Below the pieces are notes generated by a model. It worked only from the letters and a program-made list of their open reading frames with translations, was not told the origin of the DNA and did no database searches. From contig JAHQWK010000001.1 in the NCBI GenBank assembly GCA_029856145.1, positions 1-64,000 on the forward strand: a stretch of 64,000 bases of DNA, given 5' to 3'. Below, one piece after another: positions 22,610 through 38,400 of the stretch (its first letter is position 1; every line of letters begins with the position of its first letter). Source of the stretch: Promethearchaeia archaeon (lineage in GTDB: Archaea > Asgardarchaeota > Lokiarchaeia > Sigyniarchaeales > SOKP01). The position numbers and the translations under genes are program-made.

Positions 22610-23173
22610 ATGAATTTTATGGATATGAAGAAAAAAAGTTTTAATGAAATTTTATCAATTGATAATGATGATAAAAAAATCATCGAAATGATTGAAAAAG
22701 ATCCTGGTATAACCCATAGCGATATTGCTAAAGAAATTGAAAAGTCACAGCCTGCTGTAGGCGCCCGAATTATTAAATTGGAAAGAAAACATCTTATAAC
22801 TAAACAAGTTGGATTCAATATTAAGAAAGTTGATATAAAAGTTGCTATAGTTTATGTTTCTACTAAAGATGTTGATGAGATTGTTCATAAGATTGAAAAT
22901 TGCCCTTTTATTAATCATGCTTTCAAAATCTCAGGAGAATTTAATGTACTCTGCTTTATTGCTGCGTCAGACCTACAAACCATTGAAAAACTTGTGGATT
23001 TGTGTTTTAGAAGGGATAAAAATGTTATAAACGTAAAAACCAACATTATAATTGAGTCTATTCATGACTTTGTAGTTCCAATTGATTTTCAGATTGAGGA
23101 TTTCGATGGAAGATATTGCGGACCAGGTTGTAACATGGCTGAAGATCTATCAAAGTTTAAATTCAGTCAATAA
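22610..23173 (+). CDS. Lrp/AsnC-family regulator with Cys-rich tail
   Basis: HTH THSDIAKEIEKSQPAVGARI, RAM domain, tail YCGPGC. Confidence 0.85.
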   Translation: MNFMDMKKKSFNEILSIDNDDKKIIEMIEKDPGITHSDIAKEIEKSQPAVGARIIKLERKHLITKQVGFNIKKVDIKVAIVYVSTKDVDEIVHKIENCPFINHAFKISGEFNVLCFIAASDLQTIEKLVDLCFRRDKNVINVKTNIIIESIHDFVVPIDFQIEDFDGRYCGPGCNMAEDLSKFKFSQ

Positions 23174-23245
23174 AATCATGATAAAATAGATTAAGTGCTT
23201 TCTTTTTAATACTTGTAAATATCGGAAAGAAAAAAGATTAAACTA

Positions 23246-23785
23246 TCAAATTAATCCGTTAGCTTTTGCGAGTTTAACCTTACATTTTTTTCCGCATCCA
23301 TCTTCCAAAGTAGGATCATGATCTTCAGAATCAAAATCAATTGGTAGAATGAAATCCTTAGCAATATCAAGAACGATTTCCATGGAAACACTGCTTATTT
23401 GAGAGTTATTTCGAAAATGATAATTAACAATATTATCAAGCTTTTGAAGTTTTGAACTAGCGAGTAAGATGCAAACGTTATGCTCCCCTGAGAGTTTAAA
23501 CGCGTTGAGCATAAAAGGACAGTGCTTAGCCATGTCCATAATTTCTTCTGGATTCTTAGTTTTTATCTCAACAGTCGCGAGATTTAAATCTACTTTCTTA
23601 AAATTAATCCCCGGCTGGAATTGCAGAATTCCATTTTTTTCCAGCTTTTTTATGCGCATACCAACAGTTGGTTGTGATCTGTTTATTTTTGTAGCAATCT
23701 CTGTATGTGTAAGGTTAGGATCTTCTTGAACAAGAGTTATTATTTGCCTATCAATATCATCGAGCTTTAATTTTTCTGATATCAT
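23246..23785 (-). CDS. Lrp/AsnC-family regulator with Cys-rich tail
   Basis: LDDIDRQII, SQPTVGMRI, tail GCGKKC. Confidence 0.85.
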   Translation of the reverse strand: MISEKLKLDDIDRQIITLVQEDPNLTHTEIATKINRSQPTVGMRIKKLEKNGILQFQPGINFKKVDLNLATVEIKTKNPEEIMDMAKHCPFMLNAFKLSGEHNVCILLASSKLQKLDNIVNYHFRNNSQISSVSMEIVLDIAKDFILPIDFDSEDHDPTLEDGCGKKCKVKLAKANGLI

Positions 23786-23932
23786 ATTATTCTCATTAAG
23801 TGTTTTTTTTCACTTCTAATTATGTTATAACTTTAACAATTTATAAAATATTAGGATGAATTTATAAAAAATTAGTATTTGTTATTATAAGTTCTAAACA
23901 CAATATAATAAAGGAATTTTTTCTTGATTTAA

Positions 23933-24619
23933 TTAAAAATCCGACAATGGAATTTTCTTATGATAGAAGATTGTATTTCCATCAAAACTGACTTGAACAG
24001 GGATAATTTTAATCCCTCTTTTTCTTGCTTCACTTAATCTTTTTGAAAATTTAGGATCCATTTCCCAGTTTGGAGCAAAACTTTCTGCTCTACGTACAAT
24101 TAATAATAGAATAATACCATTATGTTCAATAATTTCTTTTACATGTCTTGCCCCACGTTCGGTAGGAGCGTCAGGAAAAAGAGAAAGACCATCTTTGACC
24201 AACGAAACACCTTTTACTTCTAATGGTACACCATCAAGAACAAAATCGATTCTACTATTTCCAATTTTAACTTCTTTCCTAATTTCTTTCACTTTAGAAA
24301 ATTCAGGTAAATACTCGAAAATTTTCATGGCAATCTTAGAATGTAAAGCTGTGTCTATAAGTACCCACTCATCATTAGTTTTAACAGCTTTTATATAATA
24401 TTTTAATTTACCTTTCGAATGTGTAAATAAGACCTCAGCACCTTCAATAAGTAATTCTTTTAATCTACCCGGATCATGAATGTGAGCGTTTTCGATACGT
24501 CTCTTATATTTAATTTCCCCGATAAATCTATTAGGTCTTGAGATAAATGTCCCTTTCATTAGATTTGGAATTTCAAAAAGCGCTTTTTTAGCATTATTCA
24601 TGTATGATATTTTATCCAT
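23933..24619 (-). CDS. sfsA: SfsA-family DNA/RNA nuclease-fold protein
   Basis: RPNRF, HDPGRLKEL, SRIDF, EVKG, FPDAPTERG. Confidence 0.9.
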   Translation of the reverse strand: MDKISYMNNAKKALFEIPNLMKGTFISRPNRFIGEIKYKRRIENAHIHDPGRLKELLIEGAEVLFTHSKGKLKYYIKAVKTNDEWVLIDTALHSKIAMKIFEYLPEFSKVKEIRKEVKIGNSRIDFVLDGVPLEVKGVSLVKDGLSLFPDAPTERGARHVKEIIEHNGIILLLIVRRAESFAPNWEMDPKFSKRLSEARKRGIKIIPVQVSFDGNTIFYHKKIPLSDF

Positions 24620-24722
24620 CAGTATAAATTATAATAAGTCTAATTTTCTTCCAAAATTAATAGATTTTATTATAGAATATAACCTTAATAGATAAAAAGA
24701 GTTTTTTATTTGATTAATTATA

Positions 24723-24962
24723 ATGTGTGTAGCAGAAGATCAAGCTAATATTGATAGCTATAAATTTCATCATATTGATACTTCAAAATGTGTTCAATGC
24801 CAAGATTTTTCCTGCGAGGAAGCTTGCTTTAGAGGTATTTATGAAGTTATTAATAAACAAACTACTCCTAAATGTATTGTGGTGCAAGATCGTGAGGATA
24901 GGTGTGTAAAGTGCCACATCTGTACAACCACATGTAAATATCGAGCTATTACAATTGATTAA
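24723..24962 (+). CDS. 2x[4Fe-4S] ferredoxin
   Basis: CVQCxxxxCEEAC and CVKCHICTTTC. Confidence 0.85.
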   Translation: MCVAEDQANIDSYKFHHIDTSKCVQCQDFSCEEACFRGIYEVINKQTTPKCIVVQDREDRCVKCHICTTTCKYRAITID

Positions 24963-25046
24963 TCTCTTATAAGATTTATTTAAATTTTGTTGGAGATTTT
25001 ATTTGGTATATGAAAGATTAAAAAAGTTTAGATTAATAAAGGGAAT

Positions 25047-25559
25047 TTAACAAGTAAATTTTCCACAACAAGTTCCTTTAAAATTAATTTGACCATATTC
25101 AAGATTCAAATCTATTGGTAAAACGAAATCGCCTGTAACATCTTCAATAATATCCATATGAACATTAATAACTTCTGCATTGCCTCGAAAATGATGATTT
25201 ACTACATGATCGAGTTCCTTTACTGATAAACCTACCATTAAAACGCTGATATTTGTATTTCCGCTCAATCTAAACGCTGTAAGCATGAAAGGACAGTCTT
25301 TTACAATAGTAAATATCTTTCTTGGATTTTTTGTTTGGAGTTCAACTCTAGCAAAACAGAGGTCCGCTACTTTGATATTTATACCTGCCTGATATTTTAA
25401 AACACCTAATTTTACTAATTTTTTAATACGCATTCCTACAGTGGGCTGACTACGATTTACATGCTGCGCAATTTCAGTATGTGTGAGATTCGGCTCTCTT
25501 TGAATTAAATCCATTATTCTACAATCAACTTCATCAATTCCTATTTTTTCGCTTATCAT
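25047..25559 (-). CDS. Lrp/AsnC-family regulator with Cys-rich tail
   Basis: Paralog of 23246..23785; tail TCCGKFTC. Confidence 0.85.
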   Translation of the reverse strand: MISEKIGIDEVDCRIMDLIQREPNLTHTEIAQHVNRSQPTVGMRIKKLVKLGVLKYQAGINIKVADLCFARVELQTKNPRKIFTIVKDCPFMLTAFRLSGNTNISVLMVGLSVKELDHVVNHHFRGNAEVINVHMDIIEDVTGDFVLPIDLNLEYGQINFKGTCCGKFTC

Positions 25560-25600
25560 TTCCTTTACCTTTTAATATTAAAAAATAGATTAATATTCAC

Positions 25601-25628
25601 ATATCGCGATATAACGATATTACGATAG
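25601..25628. promoter_or_regulatory. Putative operator between divergent lrp and arsR genes
   Basis: Perfect palindrome ATATCGCGATAT (25601-25612) plus CGATA repeated with 8-nt period. Confidence 0.5.
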
Positions 25629-25730
25629 CATAATATTTAAATCTTTGTGATTTTCGTATTAATAATGAATTATTAATATTCCATTAAAACAAGCTTTAAA
25701 AACTAGTAAAAAGAATAAACTAATAAATCG

Positions 25731-26066
25731 ATGAGCGAATTAAGAAAATATATGGTTGAGTTTTTAAAAGTATTAGCAGATGCAACAAGATTAGAAATCT
25801 TGGATCTTTTAAGAAACAGTGAAAAAAACTCAGCAGAAATTCAAAAAGAACTGAGGAGATCTCAATCAACCATTTCCAAACATCTCAATATGCTTTTTGA
25901 GAATAATTTAATAAGTTTTGAAAGAAAAGAAAATATAAGATACTACAAAATAAAAAATATGAATATTTTCAATTTGCTCTCAAATATAAACTTGATAGTT
26001 ACGGATATTAACAAAGAAAAACTTAAAGATTTATGGGATGTTGATATATACGACACGTTGTCTTAA
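25731..26066 (+). CDS. ArsR/SmtB-family regulator
   Basis: FLKVLADATRLEIL...SQSTISKHL. Confidence 0.9.
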   Translation: MSELRKYMVEFLKVLADATRLEILDLLRNSEKNSAEIQKELRRSQSTISKHLNMLFENNLISFERKENIRYYKIKNMNIFNLLSNINLIVTDINKEKLKDLWDVDIYDTLS

Positions 26067-26108
26067 TTTTTTTAATTTTATCCTACTATAAATCACTTTA
26101 AAACAATT

Positions 26109-26657
26109 ATGAAACCAATAGAAGTCAATGGCTCAAAAGCTCCTGTAAGAAAATTAGTTTTAATTGGATTGGACAACAGTGGAAAAACCTCAATTTTAAA
26201 ATGTTTAAAAGGAATTAAGGGTTTATCAGCCTTTAATTCTCCAATGCCCACAAAAGGTGTTGATGTTCAAGAATTTAAAGCATTAAATTCAAAATATGCA
26301 ATTTGGGATCTTGGTGGTCAAAAAGCATACCTTGATGACTTTTTTAGGGACGTTAAGAAATATATAAAGGGAACTAATAAAATCATTTACATTATTGATA
26401 TTCAAGATGTAAGACGTTATAGTATTTCGCTAGAATATCTCAAAAAAGTAGTAAATTCAATTGATAAACAAAATGGTATTGATTTTTCTGTTTTTCTTCA
26501 TAAATTTGATCCAGACTTGGTATTTGATATTGATTTAAATGAAAAAGTAATTGTGAATCTTATTAAAAATATTAAAGAGATTTTTCCTCCAAAATTTGAA
26601 TATTCCATAAATAAAACTACAATCTACGCTATCTTTGAAAAAAATCTAGTTGTATAG
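26109..26657 (+). CDS. Small GTPase, Arf/Rag-like
   Basis: G1 GLDNSGKTS, G2 PT, G3 WDLGGQ, G4 HKFD. Confidence 0.9.
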   Translation: MKPIEVNGSKAPVRKLVLIGLDNSGKTSILKCLKGIKGLSAFNSPMPTKGVDVQEFKALNSKYAIWDLGGQKAYLDDFFRDVKKYIKGTNKIIYIIDIQDVRRYSISLEYLKKVVNSIDKQNGIDFSVFLHKFDPDLVFDIDLNEKVIVNLIKNIKEIFPPKFEYSINKTTIYAIFEKNLVV

Positions 26658-26810
26658 ATGATTTTTAATATAACTTTTTTTATATTAAATAAGATGGATT
26701 TTTTAAATTATTAATATTAAAAATATTAATTATTATCGAATATAAGTATTATATTTTCTTCAGTTAGTCTTATGGTGTCGTAAGAAGATAAAAATGAAAT
26801 CCCAAGTCGA

Positions 26811-28946
26811 ATGAAGTATAGAGCTTCTATAATTATTTTTGTTGGAATAGTCCTTCTTATTTATCTAACTAATTTCTATAATTATCTCTTATTTCATACC
26901 ATCTCTGAATTATTTAGTGTAGTTATAGCATTTGGAATTTTTGTGATAGGGTGGAATACTCGAAAAAATATAGAGAGCTCTTTATTTTTGGTTCTTGGAG
27001 TTAGTTTATTATATATTGGCTCAATCGATTTAATCCATACTTTAGCATATAAAGGAATGGATATATTTGAAGGATATGATGCAAATTTGCCTACTCAATT
27101 ATGGATCGCAGCCAGATATCTTCAAGCAGGTTCATTTCTCATGGCATTTCTTTTAATGCATAAAAAAATTAATCCAAATACTTTAGTAATTGGATACACG
27201 CTTCTAACTATCCTTTTGGTAGTATGTATCTTTACTGAGCTTTTTCCGGTCTGCTATATTGAAGGGATTGGTCTAACACCTTTTAAAATTATCAGCGAAT
27301 ACATAATTATTGGAATTTTGGCAGTTTCTATAATGGTATTATATAAAAATAGAAAGGAGTTCAATTTATCCTTGCTCCATCTTATAATTTTTTCGATTTT
27401 ATTAACTATAATAGCAGAGTTAGCTTTTACATTTTATATTGGTGTATATGATCTTTCTAATTTAATAGGGCATATCTTGAAAATAATCTCTTTTTATCTT
27501 ATTTATTTAGCAATTGTCCAAAAGGGACTTGAGGATCCCTTAAATACTTTATTCTTAATGTTAAAGCAGAGTGAGGAATTTACTACATCTGCATTAAAGG
27601 CTCAAATCGATACTTTTTTTGTGTTTAATCCAAAGAACGGTAAGGCAATAAGATGGAATAAAGCCTTTAATGAGATAAGTGGATACACTGATGAGGAAAT
27701 ATTATCTATGAAAGCACCTGATTCATATTATAGTCAAGAAGATTTAATAAGAGCTGAAGAGGCTACACGAGAGATCGTAGAAAGAGGAAATGCTACAGTT
27801 CTAATGGATTTAATTACGAAAGATGGAAAAAAAATCCCTTTCGAATATTTAGGTTCAAGTATTATTGATGATCAAGGAGATATTAAATATATAGTTTCAG
27901 TTGGGCGAAATATTACTCAACGTATAAAGGCAGAAGAAGAAATTAAGAGTTTAGCTAAGTTTCCTTCAGAGAATCCAAATCCAATATTAAGAGTCAGTGA
28001 TGAAGTTGTCCTTTATACAAATGCTGCTGGTCAAAAACTGTTTAATATCGAGATTGGGAATAAAATACCCCGCAGTTTAAATGGAATAGTAGAGGGAGTC
28101 TTTCATACTCAAGTGATTCAACAAATTGAGCTTGAAATAAATAACCAATTTTACTCGTTTACTATAACCCCTATAGCTGAAAAAAAATATCTAAATATTT
28201 ATGGGCTCAATATATCAGAGAGAATTTTAGCAGAAAGAAAAATTAAAAACTTGGTGTCAACAGTTTCTCATGAATTAAGAACACCTATAACTGTTCTAAT
28301 GATGTCATTAGATTTATACAAACAAAAAAAGGATTCACTAACCCCTGAACTACAAAACTATATTATTGAGACAGGAGAAAGGAATATTTCGCTTCTAAAA
28401 GATTTATCAGAAGATATTCTCATGCTCTCTCAAATCGATGAAAAAAAAATAGAGCTTAATTTAGAATATTATAATCCATCAAAGATATTACAAAATATGG
28501 AAAAATTCTTAGCTCCTTTTGCTCAAGAAAAAAATCTTACTTTTCAAAATGATATCAATGAAGAAATCAATCTGAAAGGGGATATTAAAAGGATTGAGCA
28601 AGTCTTTCGAATTCTTCTTGATAATGCAATAAAATATTCCTTTGAAAATACAATTATCAAGATTAATGTGATTGAAAGTTACAAAGGAAGATTTAATTCT
28701 AAAGGAGAAAATGGGATTTTATTTCAATGTAAAAACCATGGTATAGGAATAAGTAAAGAAGAACTCCCTCATATTTTTGAAAGATTTTATAGAGGTTCAA
28801 ATGTAAGAGATTCTTCTGGAACCGGATTAGGCTTATCAATAGCAAAAGATATAATCGAACTTCATCAAGGGGAAATTTTTGTTGAAAGTAAATTAGGAAA
28901 TGAAACAACTTTTTCTATTTTTTTTCCAAGAATAGATAATGTTTAA
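26811..28946 (+). CDS. Sensor histidine kinase (MASE3 membrane domain, PAS domains, HisKA, HATPase)
   Basis: NYLLFHTISELFS MASE3 start, SHELRTP, NAIKY, GTGLGL. Confidence 0.92.
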   Translation: MKYRASIIIFVGIVLLIYLTNFYNYLLFHTISELFSVVIAFGIFVIGWNTRKNIESSLFLVLGVSLLYIGSIDLIHTLAYKGMDIFEGYDANLPTQLWIAARYLQAGSFLMAFLLMHKKINPNTLVIGYTLLTILLVVCIFTELFPVCYIEGIGLTPFKIISEYIIIGILAVSIMVLYKNRKEFNLSLLHLIIFSILLTIIAELAFTFYIGVYDLSNLIGHILKIISFYLIYLAIVQKGLEDPLNTLFLMLKQSEEFTTSALKAQIDTFFVFNPKNGKAIRWNKAFNEISGYTDEEILSMKAPDSYYSQEDLIRAEEATREIVERGNATVLMDLITKDGKKIPFEYLGSSIIDDQGDIKYIVSVGRNITQRIKAEEEIKSLAKFPSENPNPILRVSDEVVLYTNAAGQKLFNIEIGNKIPRSLNGIVEGVFHTQVIQQIELEINNQFYSFTITPIAEKKYLNIYGLNISERILAERKIKNLVSTVSHELRTPITVLMMSLDLYKQKKDSLTPELQNYIIETGERNISLLKDLSEDILMLSQIDEKKIELNLEYYNPSKILQNMEKFLAPFAQEKNLTFQNDINEEINLKGDIKRIEQVFRILLDNAIKYSFENTIIKINVIESYKGRFNSKGENGILFQCKNHGIGISKEELPHIFERFYRGSNVRDSSGTGLGLSIAKDIIELHQGEIFVESKLGNETTFSIFFPRIDNV

Positions 28947-29007
28947 AGTAACATTTAAATATAATTCTAATTAATATTTTCACTATAAGAGCATCAAGCG
29001 TATCATT

Positions 29008-29919
29008 ATGCAAGTTAAGACCCAAACGGTAATACTCATAGTTGACGATAATAAAGATATCTTATTTCATTTAAAATTCTTATTGGAAGAAAATAACTAT
29101 GTAGTCAAAACTGCAGTAAATGGTAAAGATGCATTAAAACTTTTATCTGAAATAATTTCACCTCCAGATTTAATTATTAGTGATATTATGATGCCGGGAA
29201 TGAATGGTTATGATTTTTTTGCGGCAATATCTAACACCCCACTTTGGAATCGAATACCATTTCTATTTCTGACAGCTAAATCAACTCCTTTAGATATTCG
29301 ATTAGGTAAAATGTTGGGAGTGGATGATTATATAACAAAACCATTTAAAAAAGAAGACCTAATTGCATCAATTTCGGGGAAAATTGCACGAAATAATAAA
29401 TCTAATCTTATTGATAAGGAGATTAAACAATTACTCTCCTCTTTAAATATTCAAATGCAATCCCCCATTCTTGATAAAGGTCAACAATTTTTATGTTTAT
29501 TAATTGTGTATTGGAATGATATTACTGGGCCTACTGTAAAGGAAGCTTATCCTCCTGAAAAGAATTTACCTATAGCGATTAATACAATTGGCAAGCAATT
29601 ATTTCATGCCGCAACTTCGATCTATGGGCATGAAAAAATTACGAAATCTCAAGGTATATTACTTAACATTGAAAATATTAATAATAAGGGGTATTTATTT
29701 TTTGATTCTTTTCCCGATGAAAATGAAAGATTTGGAGAAAAACAATATATGTTATCAGTAATCACACCAAATTTGACTTATTTTAATTCGCTTAAAATTA
29801 GAGAAATTCTGAAAGATATCTCTGAAAAAGTAAAAATGAACCAGGAGTGGGTTTTAAAAGAATATTGGGAAAAAATTTTAGAAATTTTATCAGTAAACTC
29901 AGTTTTACTACAAACTTGA
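29008..29919 (+). CDS. Response regulator with C-terminal longin/uDENN-like domain
   Basis: IVDD, IISDIMMP, FLTAK, TKPF; output domain begins LLIVYWNDITGPTVKEAYP. Confidence 0.85.
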   Translation: MQVKTQTVILIVDDNKDILFHLKFLLEENNYVVKTAVNGKDALKLLSEIISPPDLIISDIMMPGMNGYDFFAAISNTPLWNRIPFLFLTAKSTPLDIRLGKMLGVDDYITKPFKKEDLIASISGKIARNNKSNLIDKEIKQLLSSLNIQMQSPILDKGQQFLCLLIVYWNDITGPTVKEAYPPEKNLPIAINTIGKQLFHAATSIYGHEKITKSQGILLNIENINNKGYLFFDSFPDENERFGEKQYMLSVITPNLTYFNSLKIREILKDISEKVKMNQEWVLKEYWEKILEILSVNSVLLQT

Positions 29920-31124: not shown

Positions 31125-32069
31125 TTAATATTCTATATTCATTTCTTTAACATAATCAAAAGCAGAATAAGCTGCTATTACACCTTCAGAAACACCTGTA
31201 ATAGCTTGTTTAAAAGGTGCATCAGCTACATCTCCCGCCGCAAAAATACCGGGAACATTGGTTTCTGACGTACGATTAATTTTAATTTCACCTTTTTTAT
31301 TAGTTTCTACTCCAATACCTTTTGCTAAATCAGAATTAGGAATTGATCCAATTTCAATAAAAACTCCATCAATCTCAAATTCTTTTCCATTATCGAAGAC
31401 AACAGATTTTACTGTCCCCTCCCCTTTGATTTCTACTATTTGTGTTTCATAAATTATCTCAATTTTATCATTCTCATATACTCGTTTCTTATTAATTGGT
31501 TCCGCTCTGATTTCTTCTCCTCTATAAATAATATAAACTTTCTTAACGCTTTGGGCTAAGAATAATGCTTCCTTGGCAGCAGAATCACTTCCTCCAATCA
31601 CACATACATTTTTATCCTTATAAAATGGTCCATCACATGTCGCACAATACGAAACACCTCTGCCAGCAAACTCTTCTTCACCAGGAATGCCTAATTTCTT
31701 CCTATCTGAACCAGTTGCTAAACAAATTGAATAAGTTTTAAAATTTTGAAAAAATGAATGAAGCTTGAAGTGATCTTCAACTCTTTCAATCTTTCGTATC
31801 TCATCTGATATATAGGGTATCTTAAGTGAATCCATATGATCTCTAAACATGTCCATTAATCCTTGCCCACTTATTGATGTAATAGCTGGATAATTTTCAA
31901 CAAGATGAGTCGTTGCTATTAATCCTCCAAAGGTCTTCCCTACAATTAGTATATCCATAGCAAATCGAGCAGCATAAATTGCACATCCAATCGCTGTTGG
32001 TCCACCACCTAACACGATTAAATCATAGGTTTTTTCTAAATCGATACCTTCCATATCAATATTAAACAT
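31125..32069 (-). CDS. trxB: Thioredoxin reductase
   Basis: GGGP, VENYP, GVSYCATCD, FAAGD. Confidence 0.92.
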   Translation of the reverse strand: MFNIDMEGIDLEKTYDLIVLGGGPTAIGCAIYAARFAMDILIVGKTFGGLIATTHLVENYPAITSISGQGLMDMFRDHMDSLKIPYISDEIRKIERVEDHFKLHSFFQNFKTYSICLATGSDRKKLGIPGEEEFAGRGVSYCATCDGPFYKDKNVCVIGGSDSAAKEALFLAQSVKKVYIIYRGEEIRAEPINKKRVYENDKIEIIYETQIVEIKGEGTVKSVVFDNGKEFEIDGVFIEIGSIPNSDLAKGIGVETNKKGEIKINRTSETNVPGIFAAGDVADAPFKQAITGVSEGVIAAYSAFDYVKEMNIEY

Positions 32070-32120
32070 CTTTTTCTCCCCTTCCTATATTAAATTATTA
32101 TCACAAATTATTATTTTATA

Positions 32121-32777
32121 TTATAATATTACCATATTCTCTCCAATAAGTTCCTCTAGTAATTCATTAGGACCATAACAACCAATCAACGGTTCTTTTT
32201 TATTTATGATTGTATAAGGAACACTGGAGGTATTATATAGTTTTCCAATATCCGGATTTTCCATTATGTCTATTATCTCAACTCTAATTTTTCCTCCCGC
32301 AGCAAGCGCAAATTGGGAAGTAAGACTTACCATCTGAGGGGAGTAAGCACATGAATTAGTTATCATCACTTTAATAGTTGAAGGAACTATCTTATTAAGA
32401 TTCTTTTTAATAGCAGGTTCATAATAATTCAAAGCTCCCCCGAAAATTAATAAAGCTTGAATAAATGGTTGGGTTTCGCTGCCTTGTGGAGCTGATAAAT
32501 ATCGAATGAGCTCATTCCCCTCATTGTCAATTAATAATACTGTTGGGTCTCTTTCAATATTATATCTTTTCTCTAAATCTGGGTTCTTTCCGATCGGTAG
32601 CTCTACAATGGTTAACATTTCATTGGAATTCTCTTCATAAATTTTTAGAATTGACATCGTATACTCATAATTTTGAGATTTCTTATTTTTATCTATAAAT
32701 ACGTGTAGCTTAACAGGTTTAGAAAGCTTTTTCATCTCATCACGTATCATTTTTTTGAATATATATGAAGCCGGCAA
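32121..32777 (-). CDS. Protein disulfide oxidoreductase (AhpF-N/PDO) paralog, degenerate
   Basis: Two thioredoxin folds; N-terminal CxxC lost, C-terminal CAYS. Confidence 0.8.
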   Translation of the reverse strand: MPASYIFKKMIRDEMKKLSKPVKLHVFIDKNKKSQNYEYTMSILKIYEENSNEMLTIVELPIGKNPDLEKRYNIERDPTVLLIDNEGNELIRYLSAPQGSETQPFIQALLIFGGALNYYEPAIKKNLNKIVPSTIKVMITNSCAYSPQMVSLTSQFALAAGGKIRVEIIDIMENPDIGKLYNTSSVPYTIINKKEPLIGCYGPNELLEELIGENMVIL

Positions 32778-32837
32778 TTTTATCTCCTCTTACAAATAAT
32801 TATTTTCATAATTTTTAACATAATTAAATTAAAAGGA

Positions 32838-33521
32838 TCAATATTGAACGCGAATATTACCTCCAATCAAAGCTTGTAAAATTTTATTTGCCCCCACCAT
32901 TCCAACTAAGGTCTTTTGATCGTTTATAATAGTATATGGCACACCAGCCGCGTCATAATATTGACCGATATCAGGATTAGCTATAATATCAATAATAATT
33001 GTTCTTATTTTTCCTTCTGAAGCTATGGCAAATAAACTACAGATATTCACTATCTGAGGGCAGTATGGACAAGTCTCAGTTATCATTACCTTTATTGTAG
33101 AAGGTTGAATTCTGTCTAAATTTTGTTTTATCGTCGCTTTATAATAATTGGGTGCCCCAGCAAAAACAAATATAGCTTGGATAAAGGGTTGAATTTCACC
33201 TCCTTGAGGGGCTGCTAAATAACGTATAATCTCCTTTTCTTTCTCATCAATGAATAAGATTGTGGGTACTCTTGAAATATCATAACTCTTAGCAAATTCA
33301 GGATTTTCATCAATACATAATTCCTCAATTGCTAACATTCCATTTGAGTTTTCTTCATAAACTCTCAATAATGCCATAAACTGATTACAATCCATACATT
33401 CTCTTATTTGGCTCCCAGGTGGCTGTTTCTCTTTACATGTAAATACTTTTAATTTAACTGGTTTCCTTAATTTTGCCATTTCTCCCTTGATTATTTCTCT
33501 ATATTTATCATCTTGAGTCAT
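32838..33521 (-). CDS. Protein disulfide oxidoreductase (PDO)
   Basis: CMDC and CPYC. Confidence 0.85.
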   Translation of the reverse strand: MTQDDKYREIIKGEMAKLRKPVKLKVFTCKEKQPPGSQIRECMDCNQFMALLRVYEENSNGMLAIEELCIDENPEFAKSYDISRVPTILFIDEKEKEIIRYLAAPQGGEIQPFIQAIFVFAGAPNYYKATIKQNLDRIQPSTIKVMITETCPYCPQIVNICSLFAIASEGKIRTIIIDIIANPDIGQYYDAAGVPYTIINDQKTLVGMVGANKILQALIGGNIRVQY

Positions 33522-33544
33522 TAACTAAAATCACCTTAAATTAA

Positions 33545-34252
33545 TTATGCGTAGATTCCTCCAAAATCTCGATCTTTCGAACCGACAAGTTTCTCTAGTA
33601 AATCTTGAGGAGTAAACATTCCGTGAATAACTTCTTTTTCATTTATTACTGTCATGGGGACACCTTGAACTTGGTATTTCATACCGAGCTCTGGGTTTAA
33701 ATTAACATCAATTACTTCCGCTGAAATCTTTCCTTTAGAAACTAAAGCGAATAATGTTAAAACTGGAACAGTAGCAGGACAATAGGGACACGTTGGAGTT
33801 ATAAAGATTTTCATATTTGACTTTCCTATCTTTTTAAGATGAGTAAGGATTTGATCCGTATAATAAGGTCTTACTCCTGAGAAGTATTGTATACTATTAA
33901 GAAATGGTACAAATTCAGATCCTACAGGTTGTGCTAAGTATCGAATAATTTCTTTATCATTTTCATCTACAAATAATATAGCAGGGATCTTAGTAACATT
34001 GAATTTTTTTGCTTCTTCTTCATTTTCTTCAGTGGAGATTTCCTCAATTTTAAGTTTTCCATCAGATAAATCCTCAAGAGTTTTTAACAGCTCATACGTC
34101 CCACCACAAGCCATACACTTTCTAAATCTTGTTCCATCTTCATTGGTTTTAAAATCAGTAAACAGTTTAAGTACAACCTTTCCTTTTAATTTACTCATTT
34201 CTCTTTTAATATTATCCATTTCATTTTCAGAAAATAACATAAAATCACCCAT
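33545..34252 (-). CDS. Protein disulfide oxidoreductase (PDO)
   Basis: CMAC and TPTCPYCP, GVP. Confidence 0.88.
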   Translation of the reverse strand: MGDFMLFSENEMDNIKREMSKLKGKVVLKLFTDFKTNEDGTRFRKCMACGGTYELLKTLEDLSDGKLKIEEISTEENEEEAKKFNVTKIPAILFVDENDKEIIRYLAQPVGSEFVPFLNSIQYFSGVRPYYTDQILTHLKKIGKSNMKIFITPTCPYCPATVPVLTLFALVSKGKISAEVIDVNLNPELGMKYQVQGVPMTVINEKEVIHGMFTPQDLLEKLVGSKDRDFGGIYA

Positions 34253-37123: not shown

Positions 37124-37293
37124 CTATTAATTTCAAATTTATGTTAATAATTAAAGATTTATGTTAAAGATTATAAGATTTATAAAGAAAACTGAATTCT
37201 AAAGCGATAGTTTATATTATTTTGAAGCTTATTTGTATAATTAGGAAACATTATGAATCTATTAGCTATAATAAGATTAAACTCCAAATAACG

Positions 37294-38400
37294 ATGATTG
37301 AAGATTTATTAATTATTAATGAATCAGGAGCACTTTTATATAATTGGCATCCAGAAGGTTATAAAGGCAACATGAACGATGATTTACTTAGTGGCTTCTT
37401 GACTGCGATTAATAGTTTTGCCACTGTAGAAAGGGGCGAGGATCTAAAGTCTCTTAAGATGAAAGAAACTCAAATTATTTTTGAAAAGTATGAAGAGTTT
37501 TTCCAAAAAATAACCTTTGTGATTACTACTAAAAATGAGGAATTAATTGAATTATTACATGCAGTTATTCATGAAATTATGGAAAGCTTTGCAAAACTTT
37601 TTAGCGAAAGCCTTAATAAAAAATTTAATGGTTTGGTATCAGAATATCAAATATTTGATAATTATGTTAAGCAAATAATTAACTCACATGGTTTGGATAT
37701 ATTAAATGACTCTATAAAGAAAATTGATATGGATACACCTTTAAAAGCCATTATGTTTCTCGAACCGAAAGGAGGTAATGTCTACTATATCCACGCTAAA
37801 CAATATGTTAACAAAGATAAAATCAGTTTTCTCATTCCTCTGATCATAAATTCTTCGAAATTATTGTACCAAAATAATCTTAATGAAAAATTATATTGGA
37901 TTCTTCTTAATACTGTTCGTAATGAAAATCTAATAGTCGAACCTCGGAATAACATTCTGATTGCAAAACAATATCAATTATCAGAAAATTTTGAAGATGA
38001 ATATTTAGGATTGGAATTTTTCAACGAAAAAGATAAGTATGTCAAAAAGCCTAAAAAATTAATTGAAAAATTTGAAAGTGTAGATTGGAACCCTAAAATC
38101 AAACAAATTTATTTAATAGATATGGTAGGTAAAATATTTTATTCAGAAATTTTTGATAAGGCTTATGATTGTTCCGATTATATTCCAGAGACTATAAGCT
38201 TTTTGACAGCTTCAAAGAAAGCAAGTGAAGAAATCTATAATAGAATATTATTTAATGCAAGTATTGGTGGAGAAAAATTAGCTACTATATGTATGAATTT
38301 TAATAACTTTGCTTTAACTTTGATTGGTAAAATTCAGGATTTTACCGATTATAAAGTAATTCAAAAGACTTGTCTGGACATTTATCAACAATTAATATGA
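37294..38400 (+). CDS. Longin/roadblock multi-domain protein
   Basis: MIEDLLIINESGALLY...LLSGFLTAINSF longin N-terminus followed by two similar alpha/beta units; start moved to ATG 37294. Confidence 0.7.
   Translation: MIEDLLIINESGALLYNWHPEGYKGNMNDDLLSGFLTAINSFATVERGEDLKSLKMKETQIIFEKYEEFFQKITFVITTKNEELIELLHAVIHEIMESFAKLFSESLNKKFNGLVSEYQIFDNYVKQIINSHGLDILNDSIKKIDMDTPLKAIMFLEPKGGNVYYIHAKQYVNKDKISFLIPLIINSSKLLYQNNLNEKLYWILLNTVRNENLIVEPRNNILIAKQYQLSENFEDEYLGLEFFNEKDKYVKKPKKLIEKFESVDWNPKIKQIYLIDMVGKIFYSEIFDKAYDCSDYIPETISFLTASKKASEEIYNRILFNASIGGEKLATICMNFNNFALTLIGKIQDFTDYKVIQKTCLDIYQQLI

Follow-up and report, generated by a model that had tools for sequence, protein, structure and literature searches.

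In eukaryotes, several GTPase-activating proteins (GAPs) are built on longin domains: C9orf72-SMCR8-WDR41 acts on ARF, FLCN-FNIP2 on RagC/D, and the NPRL2-NPRL3 pair of GATOR1 on RagA/B. A glycine-proline (GP) motif before strand β2 and an arginine finger, both absent from most other longins, set apart the GAP longins FLCN, NPRL2, and SMCR8/C9orf72, and C9orf72 additionally carries W33-D34 ahead of its G38-P39 (PMC12290439). An arginine in the β4-β5 loop marks the GAPs among DENN proteins (10.64898/2026.01.05.697756). Asgard genomes encode dozens of small GTPases and longins, and longins bearing the GP motif and arginine have been noted among them; the same paper asks whether these act as GAPs and whether they partner with ArfR or Rag GTPases (PMC12290439). 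Many fusions of NPRL2-like longins with two-component domains have also been reported from Asgard archaea, together with the proposal that two-component systems with eukaryote-type regulators lie at the centre of growth control there (Liu et al., bioRxiv 10.1101/2020.10.19.343400, Fig. 5c). Here we describe a four-gene cassette in the first 64,000 nucleotides (the window) of a contig, C9, of a Promethearchaeia archaeon genome (GCA_029856145.1, JAHQWK010000001.1), in which a response regulator with a longin output domain is encoded beside a Rag-like GTPase. With a little more than even confidence, this regulator is predicted to be a phosphorylation-controlled arginine-finger GAP for the neighbouring GTPase.

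The source genome comprises 3.55 Mb at 30% G+C. The four open reading frames (ORFs) lie on the forward strand in the order arsR, GTPase, kinase, and regulator, separated by intergenic gaps of 42, 153, and 61 bp (Table 1). The original prediction, made from the DNA letters and ORF translations, had described them as co-oriented genes for an ArsR protein, a GTPase, a MASE3-PAS kinase, and a response regulator, and all four are found as described. It had further proposed that a phosphorelay controls a GTPase switch, an inference that now has the support of a longin fold, a conserved linkage, and a predicted contact; the regulation is probably that exerted by a GAP, a sharper reading than the one first offered. 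Arg241, the short C-terminus of the GTPase, and Asn642 in the kinase G1 box had been overlooked at that stage. The cassette is real and conserved, and combines known parts in a new arrangement.

The receiver domain of the regulator is canonical, retaining D13/D14, T89, and K111 along with the intact phospho-acceptor D59 that had been noticed earlier. Its best profiles are of the PhoB/OmpR type, though they score below their cut-offs, and its α4-β5-α5 face is largely invariant. Pfam names no family beyond the receiver in this protein, and a scan of 64 family members likewise returned no relevant family. Searches with residues 140-303 gave 133 close homologues, of which nearly all are fused to receivers; clustered at 50%, the relatives number 196. 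The AlphaFold2 model of the output domain contains a five-stranded sheet (mean predicted local distance difference test score, pLDDT, 83; predicted template-modelling score 0.81). Its top Foldseek matches are GATOR1/SEA chains (E 1.4e-4 to 6e-4), followed by Lst4 and FLCN. VIA-align, run independently against all representatives, places it closest to a Loki longin (Z 12.1, root-mean-square deviation 3.4, 135 residues aligned), Lst4 (Z 12.0, 2.8, 123), and FLCN (Z 11.6, 2.7, 133), with the C9orf72-SMCR8 complex (Z 10.3) and DENND1A (Z 10.2) among further matches, while the Atlas search returned SMCR8-like proteins (template-modelling score 0.75), archaeal Folliculin (0.72), and C9orf72 and Avl9 clusters (both 0.71). 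On the basis of this model, assignment of the output domain to the longin/uDENN fold, in the class of FLCN, NPRL2, SMCR8, and C9orf72, is secure. The longin/uDENN likeness originally read from the letters is thus borne out by the agreement of three fold searches. Two outcomes had been named that would count against the earlier proposal, an output domain of another fold and a lack of interaction or conserved linkage; the fold check returned longin/uDENN, and linkage was found across genera and into a second family.

Sequence searches were less informative. A broad profile of the output domain gave zero sequence matches in the PDB, the NPR2 profile matched nothing, its controls included, and the Folliculin profile matched just two other proteins, below cut-off. 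A two-step sequence bridge to FLCN through a Folliculin-matching protein was also tried and failed in the PDB search, with an hhalign probability of 15%, though the arginine loops were aligned. Identity to the eukaryotic longin GAPs is about 7-16%. The regulator begins with its receiver and ends with the longin at residue 303, having no C-terminal DENN or NPRL-specific lobe. Because it differs in this respect from its eukaryotic counterparts, and presumably also lacks their two-subunit heterodimeric make-up, it is classed as working like the longin GAPs and not as their orthologue.

The resemblance to the eukaryotic GAPs extends from the fold to the GP motif, the W-x-D loop, and the β4-β5 arginine. 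The motif W/FxxxxGPxhxxxYP that had been claimed for the start of the output domain reads Y-W-N-D-I-T-G-P-T-V-K-E-A-Y-P, spanning W169 to P182. Among 104 distant homologues, the glycine of the GP motif (G174-P175, before β2) is kept in 98 and the proline in 96; W169 is kept in 99 and followed by aspartate in 78, the window copy having asparagine at that position. The spacing from tryptophan to glycine equals that of W33-D34..G38-P39 in C9orf72. Arg241, the candidate arginine finger, is present in 64 of 64 close and 75 of 104 distant homologues. As judged from its sequence, one regulator chain carries the marks that are split between C9orf72 and SMCR8. The Asgard GP/arginine longins already noted have these motifs in common with the regulator (PMC12290439); what distinguishes the longin of the window is that it forms the output of a response regulator and that gene order names its candidate partner.

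The candidate partner has all five GTPase motifs intact (G1 at 20-28, T48, G3 at 67-71 with Q71, G4 at 131-134, and G5 at 170-173). G4 is the Rag-type H-K-x-D and G5 reads T-[ST]-I-Y, as in Rag G domains. The closest solved relatives by sequence are LokiRagO (PDB 8yl2, E 3e-22) and LokiRagM (8zla/9m28, E 9e-21), and structural matches rank Asgard Rag-like proteins (Z 21.4) and Gtr1 (20.4) above the Arf family (17.5-18.7). The protein is nearer to Lokiarchaeal Rag-like GTPases and RagA/Gtr1 than to Arf, in sequence, fold, and G4/G5 motifs. Its likeness to Arf is confined to G1 and G3: the N-terminus is variable and unstructured in the model, and G4 is HKFD rather than the N-K-x-D of Arf/ArfR proteins. 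Unlike its Rag relatives, it has neither a C-terminal roadblock, the dimerisation domain of Rag/Gtr proteins, nor a longin domain, so it offers no Rag-type dimer platform. Since the roadblock is absent and more than 100 homologues measure about 182 residues, it is labelled Rag-like, G domain only; the same homologues, for which the short form is the conserved form, led us to reject a truncated or broken gene. Within the source genome it is the sole G-domain-only member of about 11 Rag-like paralogues. Members of its clade all stop 9-14 residues past G5 (9 in the cassette copy), after a conserved I-Y-x-x-F-E-K motif modelled as a β strand. The model ends in this strand (local pLDDT about 70) without helix α5, which is apparently absent in all 40 loci that carry this clade and retained in other GTPase clades.

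Matching Asgard GTPases to their GAPs or exchange factors by gene order has been called difficult, and in strain MK-D1 GTPase genes generally lie outside the operons of their regulators (PMC10933270). Here the association recurs. In a sample of 80 neighbourhoods, chosen as those of the best-scoring family members and hence favouring orthologues over a random draw, the order arsR-GTPase-kinase-regulator is found in 32 loci, including the window, and in 14 of 14 intact top loci of the same genus. The same GTPase clade (support 100/99) lies at most 4 kb upstream of the regulator in 40 loci from several genera and one other family. The kinase is absent from three loci, where GTPase and regulator are 126-346 bp apart, and in two others the GTPase gene is inverted yet retained. 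A second cassette type (9 loci) has a separate clade of short GTPases (support 100/100) directly downstream of the regulator. In two loci, a hybrid PAS-kinase-receiver-longin protein is encoded ahead of a full-length Rag, and in one protein a Rab-like GTPase is joined to a longin from the clade of the second cassette. Regions no more than 4 kb from a gene for a Rag-like GTPase make up only 2.3% of the source genome, or 12% if all small GTPases are counted, and against this background the recurrence in 32 loci puts the gene association beyond chance. The trees contain long branches and deep forks of the longin tree are unsupported, so that the independent pairings are stated as at least three GTPase clades and not as a tested count. 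Could the genes be neighbours through shared descent alone, with regulator and GTPase functionally unlinked? Most loci come from one family, whose kin share gene order, and the sampling by best score would favour such a pattern. Yet the regulator family is found paired with three or more distinct GTPase clades in differing arrangements, a fusion exists, the genes stay adjacent where the kinase is absent or the GTPase gene inverted, and the complex model described below passes with clean controls; mere shared descent is very improbable indeed.

Of 151 genomes of the class, 128 contain the regulator family, as do 23 of 121 drawn from the whole phylum, the latter mostly from the same taxonomic family. 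Named homologues of both the regulator and the GTPase are nearly all labelled Promethearchaeota/Lokiarchaeota or other Asgard groups, which marks the source as a Lokiarchaeia-type Asgard archaeon.

A complex of two longin copies, the GTPase, GTP, and Mg was modelled, the ligand being left out of scoring. Its score was 0.68 (runs 0.70, 0.68, and 0.68), whereas the best of three controls had 0.00. Of 80 solved complexes, 58 attain this mark, as do 2 of 110 mismatched pairs, counts that hold only roughly for a case such as this. The runs share at least 75% of contacts, with partner pLDDT of at least 79. This multimer prediction, a check suggested at the outset, supports contact between regulator and GTPase. 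The first longin copy touches the GTPase through residues 169-176, helix 1, and 241-242, and the second through 171-175 and helix 1; on the GTPase side the interface is formed by D22-N23, switch I, and Q71-Y74. The best modelled contacts join longin D171-P175 to GTPase D22, N23, P47, and Q71-Y74, with R241 in the interface. As modelled, the longin dimer and GTPase show a GAP-like geometry, similar to the placement of ARF1 on C9orf72-SMCR8 (10.1101/2021.04.13.439632), and the two-longin pocket on the GTPase switches, which for the regulator is predicted, recalls that of the eukaryotic complexes.

Binding of this kind could also mean that the longin serves the neighbouring GTPase as an effector, scaffold, or guanine nucleotide exchange factor (GEF) and not as a GAP, and information might then flow from GTPase to regulator, affecting its localisation or access to the kinase, much as has been suggested for RomR/RomX and MglA of Myxococcus. 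The majority of longin/DENN proteins serve as GEFs or platforms (PMC10933270), DENND1, TRAPP, and Mon1-Ccz1 also match the output domain at Z 9-10, and RomRX has been reinterpreted as an effector of MglA-GTP (PMC13408092); linkage and a binding model by themselves leave the direction unfixed. The GP motif and the β4-β5 arginine are, however, marks of the GAP class, and Gln71 and the P-loop lie at the heart of the modelled contacts. An effector or exchange role is accordingly viewed as unlikely, if still credible.

Several points weigh against a GAP for the adjacent GTPase. The equivalence of Arg241 to FLCN R164 and SMCR8 R147 would rest on topology and the model, not on a residue-level alignment. 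The pass of the complex may echo the solved FLCN-Rag, GATOR1-Rag, and SMCR8-ARF1 structures; as similar complexes have been solved, it indicates likeness and is not proof that this pair binds. Close cousins of true partners also pass, so the cassette GTPase is not singled out among the roughly 11 Rag-like paralogues, and conservation across the predicted interface as a whole does not exceed that elsewhere (p 0.66 and 0.30). In the five loci that come from other classes, GTPases adjoin the regulator once and kinases alone do so three times, the fifth locus being truncated where its contig stops. The arginine is kept in 55 of 56 receiver-longins linked to a GTPase and in 12 of 17 assessable unlinked ones; those 12 regulators bear the arginine with no GTPase within 4 kb. 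The Arg-less receiver-longins, which also have no GTPase nearby and include a paralogue from the source genome, form one clade and hence represent one event.

These distributions bear on a further alternative, in which the regulator is a GAP that needs a different second longin, for example the one encoded by the Arg-less paralogue at C9:217390, or works chiefly on GTPases from other loci, its neighbour being co-regulated or one of several substrates. The eukaryotic longin GAPs are heterodimers, and the source genome offers both that paralogue and many Rag-like GTPases, besides the unlinked Arg-bearing regulators just mentioned. Against this, the W-x-D loop and the arginine lie in one chain, so a homodimer can fill both roles, and many related genomes show just one family member. 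Divergence of the GTPase also follows the longin (r 0.85) more closely than the receiver (0.75) or the kinase (0.68), a weak sign given that the pairs are not independent. A heterodimeric GAP or one with other main substrates seems rather improbable.

A last difficulty concerns the kinase. It comprises MASE3 (21-243, about seven hydrophobic segments), PAS (262-371), HisKA with H487, and HATPase_c (590-707), and total length varies from about 580 to 1020 residues over the loci, the variation lying in the sensory part. In GHKL ATPases, the aspartate of the G1 box contacts adenine. The G1 box of the window kinase is K-N-H-G-I-G, with Asn642 at this position; asparagine occurs in 7 of 45 cognate kinases (the window copy and six relatives of the same genus) and aspartate in the other 38. 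Because six relatives share it and 38 others have aspartate, Asn642 is neither an error nor a general trait. Judging from the motif, the replacement may impair ATP binding or shift nucleotide preference. The longin-GTPase link might then hold while the adjacent kinase in this lineage lacks ATP autophosphorylation and works as a phosphatase, as an anchor, or with another nucleotide, D59 being fed by another of the roughly 19 kinases of the genome; the three loci without a kinase fit such an arrangement. The H box (H487), N box (N605), and G2 box are nevertheless intact and conserved in the kinases with G1 asparagine, and since 38 of 45 cognate kinases retain aspartate the cassette as a type is unaffected. 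An inactive kinase is held to be quite improbable.

With the regulator read as a GAP, the cassette would form a signalling unit running from sensor kinase through receiver-longin to GTPase. Intact H487 and D59 and the conserved adjacency suggest that the phosphorylation state of D59 is governed by the MASE3-PAS kinase. Phosphorylated receivers of the OmpR/PhoB family pair through their α4-β5-α5 face. Phosphorylation of D59 most likely pairs the receivers in this way and leads the two longins to dimerise; in more general terms it would determine whether the longins pair or become exposed, and the sign of control could be either. In the model, the longin homodimer cups the GTP-bound GTPase, one copy covering the P-loop and switches I and II with its W-x-D..GP loop and Arg241 and the second holding the far side, so that a single gene would cover both roles divided between SMCR8 and C9orf72 in eukaryotes. 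Arg241 and GTPase Gln71 would then accelerate GTP hydrolysis and switch the GTPase off. Rather tentatively, at less than even confidence, the whole may be seen as a self-contained pathway, in which a membrane kinase activates a homodimeric longin GAP by inducing its pairing through phosphorylation, and this GAP acts on a dedicated minimal Rag-like GTPase without roadblock or α5. It would be a symmetric, single-gene counterpart of FLCN, GATOR1, and C9orf72, taking input from a histidine kinase where the eukaryotic complexes use nutrient sensors.

Compared with the eukaryotic GAPs, the regulator thus differs in its phosphorylatable receiver and presumed homodimer. The Myxococcus MglA-MglB-RomR/RomX-Frz system is similar in that a prokaryotic phosphorelay and a receiver protein both act on a Ras-like GTPase whose GAP has the roadblock fold; in that system the GAP is MglB and the receiver belongs to a different protein, RomR, whereas here receiver and putative GAP share one chain and the GTPase is Rag-like. 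The fusions of Liu et al. resemble the regulator as NPRL2-class longins joined to two-component domains in Asgard genomes, and the novelty of the receiver-longin fusion is to that extent lower than assumed; for these fusions, their text mentions neither a GTPase partner or cassette nor an arginine finger or GAP mechanism (10.1101/2020.10.19.343400). A literature search, incomplete for subscription journals, found no paper describing the cassette or testing such a protein, and nothing specific on MASE3 in archaea or on kinases with G1-box asparagine. The cassette offers a candidate pair of small proteins, a likely regulator with its likely target. Confirmation of GAP activity would make the regulator a longin GAP from a prokaryote that acts on a Rag-like GTPase, and the histidine kinase would then head a pathway ending in a GTPase switch instead of transcription. 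Ancestry of the eukaryotic complexes would not thereby be shown, the family being found mainly in one Asgard class.

Table 1. Features of the cassette, with positions in the window.
Feature	Position	Strand	Basis
Candidate promoter/operator: TTAAT-n5-ATTAA palindrome, then TATA-like TTTAAAAA	25673..25702	+	Inferred; background AT-rich
ArsR/SmtB-type winged-helix regulator, 111 residues	25731..26066	+	Pfam HTH_5 E 2e-11; NCBIfam HTH_metalloreg above cut-off
Rag-like small GTPase, G domain only, 182 residues	26109..26657	+	Pfam Arf E 5e-20, Gtr1_RagA E 6e-15
Membrane sensor histidine kinase, 711 residues	26811..28946	+	MASE3 (E 3e-86), PAS, HisKA, HATPase_c
Kinase G1-box Asn642 in place of Asp	28734-28736	+	Alignment of 45 cognate kinases
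Response regulator, 303 residues: receiver, linker, longin output	29008..29919	+	Domain and homologue searches
Receiver domain, residues 9-122	29032..29373	+	Response_reg E 1e-25
Phospho-acceptor D59	29182-29184	+	Receiver alignment
Longin/uDENN output domain, residues ~162-300, b-b-a-b-b-b-a-a	29491..29907	+	AlphaFold2 model; Foldseek, VIA-align, Atlas
W169-N-D-I-T-G174-P175 loop	29512..29532	+	Broad alignment; C9orf72 spacing; predicted interface centre
Arg241, candidate arginine finger, β4-β5 loop	29728..29730	+	Homologue alignment; AlphaFold2 model

The first gene of the cassette encodes an ArsR protein with zero cysteines and, in the orthologue alignment, a conserved C-terminal D-x-x-D-T-L tail. 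ArsR would control transcription of the cassette and probably autoregulates it; some loci have no arsR, which is therefore dispensable there. The idea that its tail fills the slot of the absent α5 of the GTPase was not supported, as the short GTPase also occurs in several loci that lack arsR. The TATA-like TTTAAAAA sits about 30 bp ahead of the arsR start, and the columns of the candidate promoter/operator are mostly invariant across 15 aligned upstream regions. A scan for sigma-70 promoters and terminators, a method unsuited to archaea, gave chance-level results only. Upstream, three genes for Lrp/AsnC-type regulators (187, 179, and 170 residues) cluster at 22610-25559, and the one nearest to arsR is a divergent, conserved neighbour of the cassette. 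In the gap between them (25590-25645), CGATA repeats are conserved, the palindrome TATCGCGATA among them, as is a TATTTAAA box; these are possibly an Lrp operator and promoter.

Further longin and GTPase genes were seen outside the cassette. The Arg-less receiver-longin paralogue of the source genome (C9:217390-218346; L001:7391-8347) has a longer loop and stands among oxidoreductase genes with no GTPase or kinase nearby; it is possibly a non-catalytic partner or a protein of different function. A second island (C3:172000-188600; L149) encodes about five GTPase-domain proteins, three kinases, and two receivers, as well as a GAP-longin-like protein of 227 residues with a GP loop and an R-G-G-K loop. 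At C13:91871-93334, a Rag-like GTPase of 487 residues has an N-terminal domain with a GP loop, a D-x-x-x-R-G loop, and a weak Folliculin match, and may be a GAP longin fused in cis to a GTPase. Other fusions of the longin family occur at L060:7890-9140, L137:6858-8918, L138:5676-7757, L102:7319-9001, L106:7092-8096, and L127:2318-4399, and comprise Rab-like GTPase-longin, PAS-kinase-receiver-longin, PAS-longin, and TPR-longin proteins.

On its 3' side, the cassette is followed by genes for HSP20 and an acetyltransferase-like protein and by a convergent cluster (31125-34252) of one thioredoxin reductase-like and three protein-disulfide-oxidoreductase-like genes. ORFs matching this cluster in size and orientation adjoin the cassette in many relatives, which may hint at a redox context or reflect plain synteny. 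Farther downstream, an ORF of 392 residues (37222-38400) has no Pfam match and an N-terminus that looks longin-like by eye.

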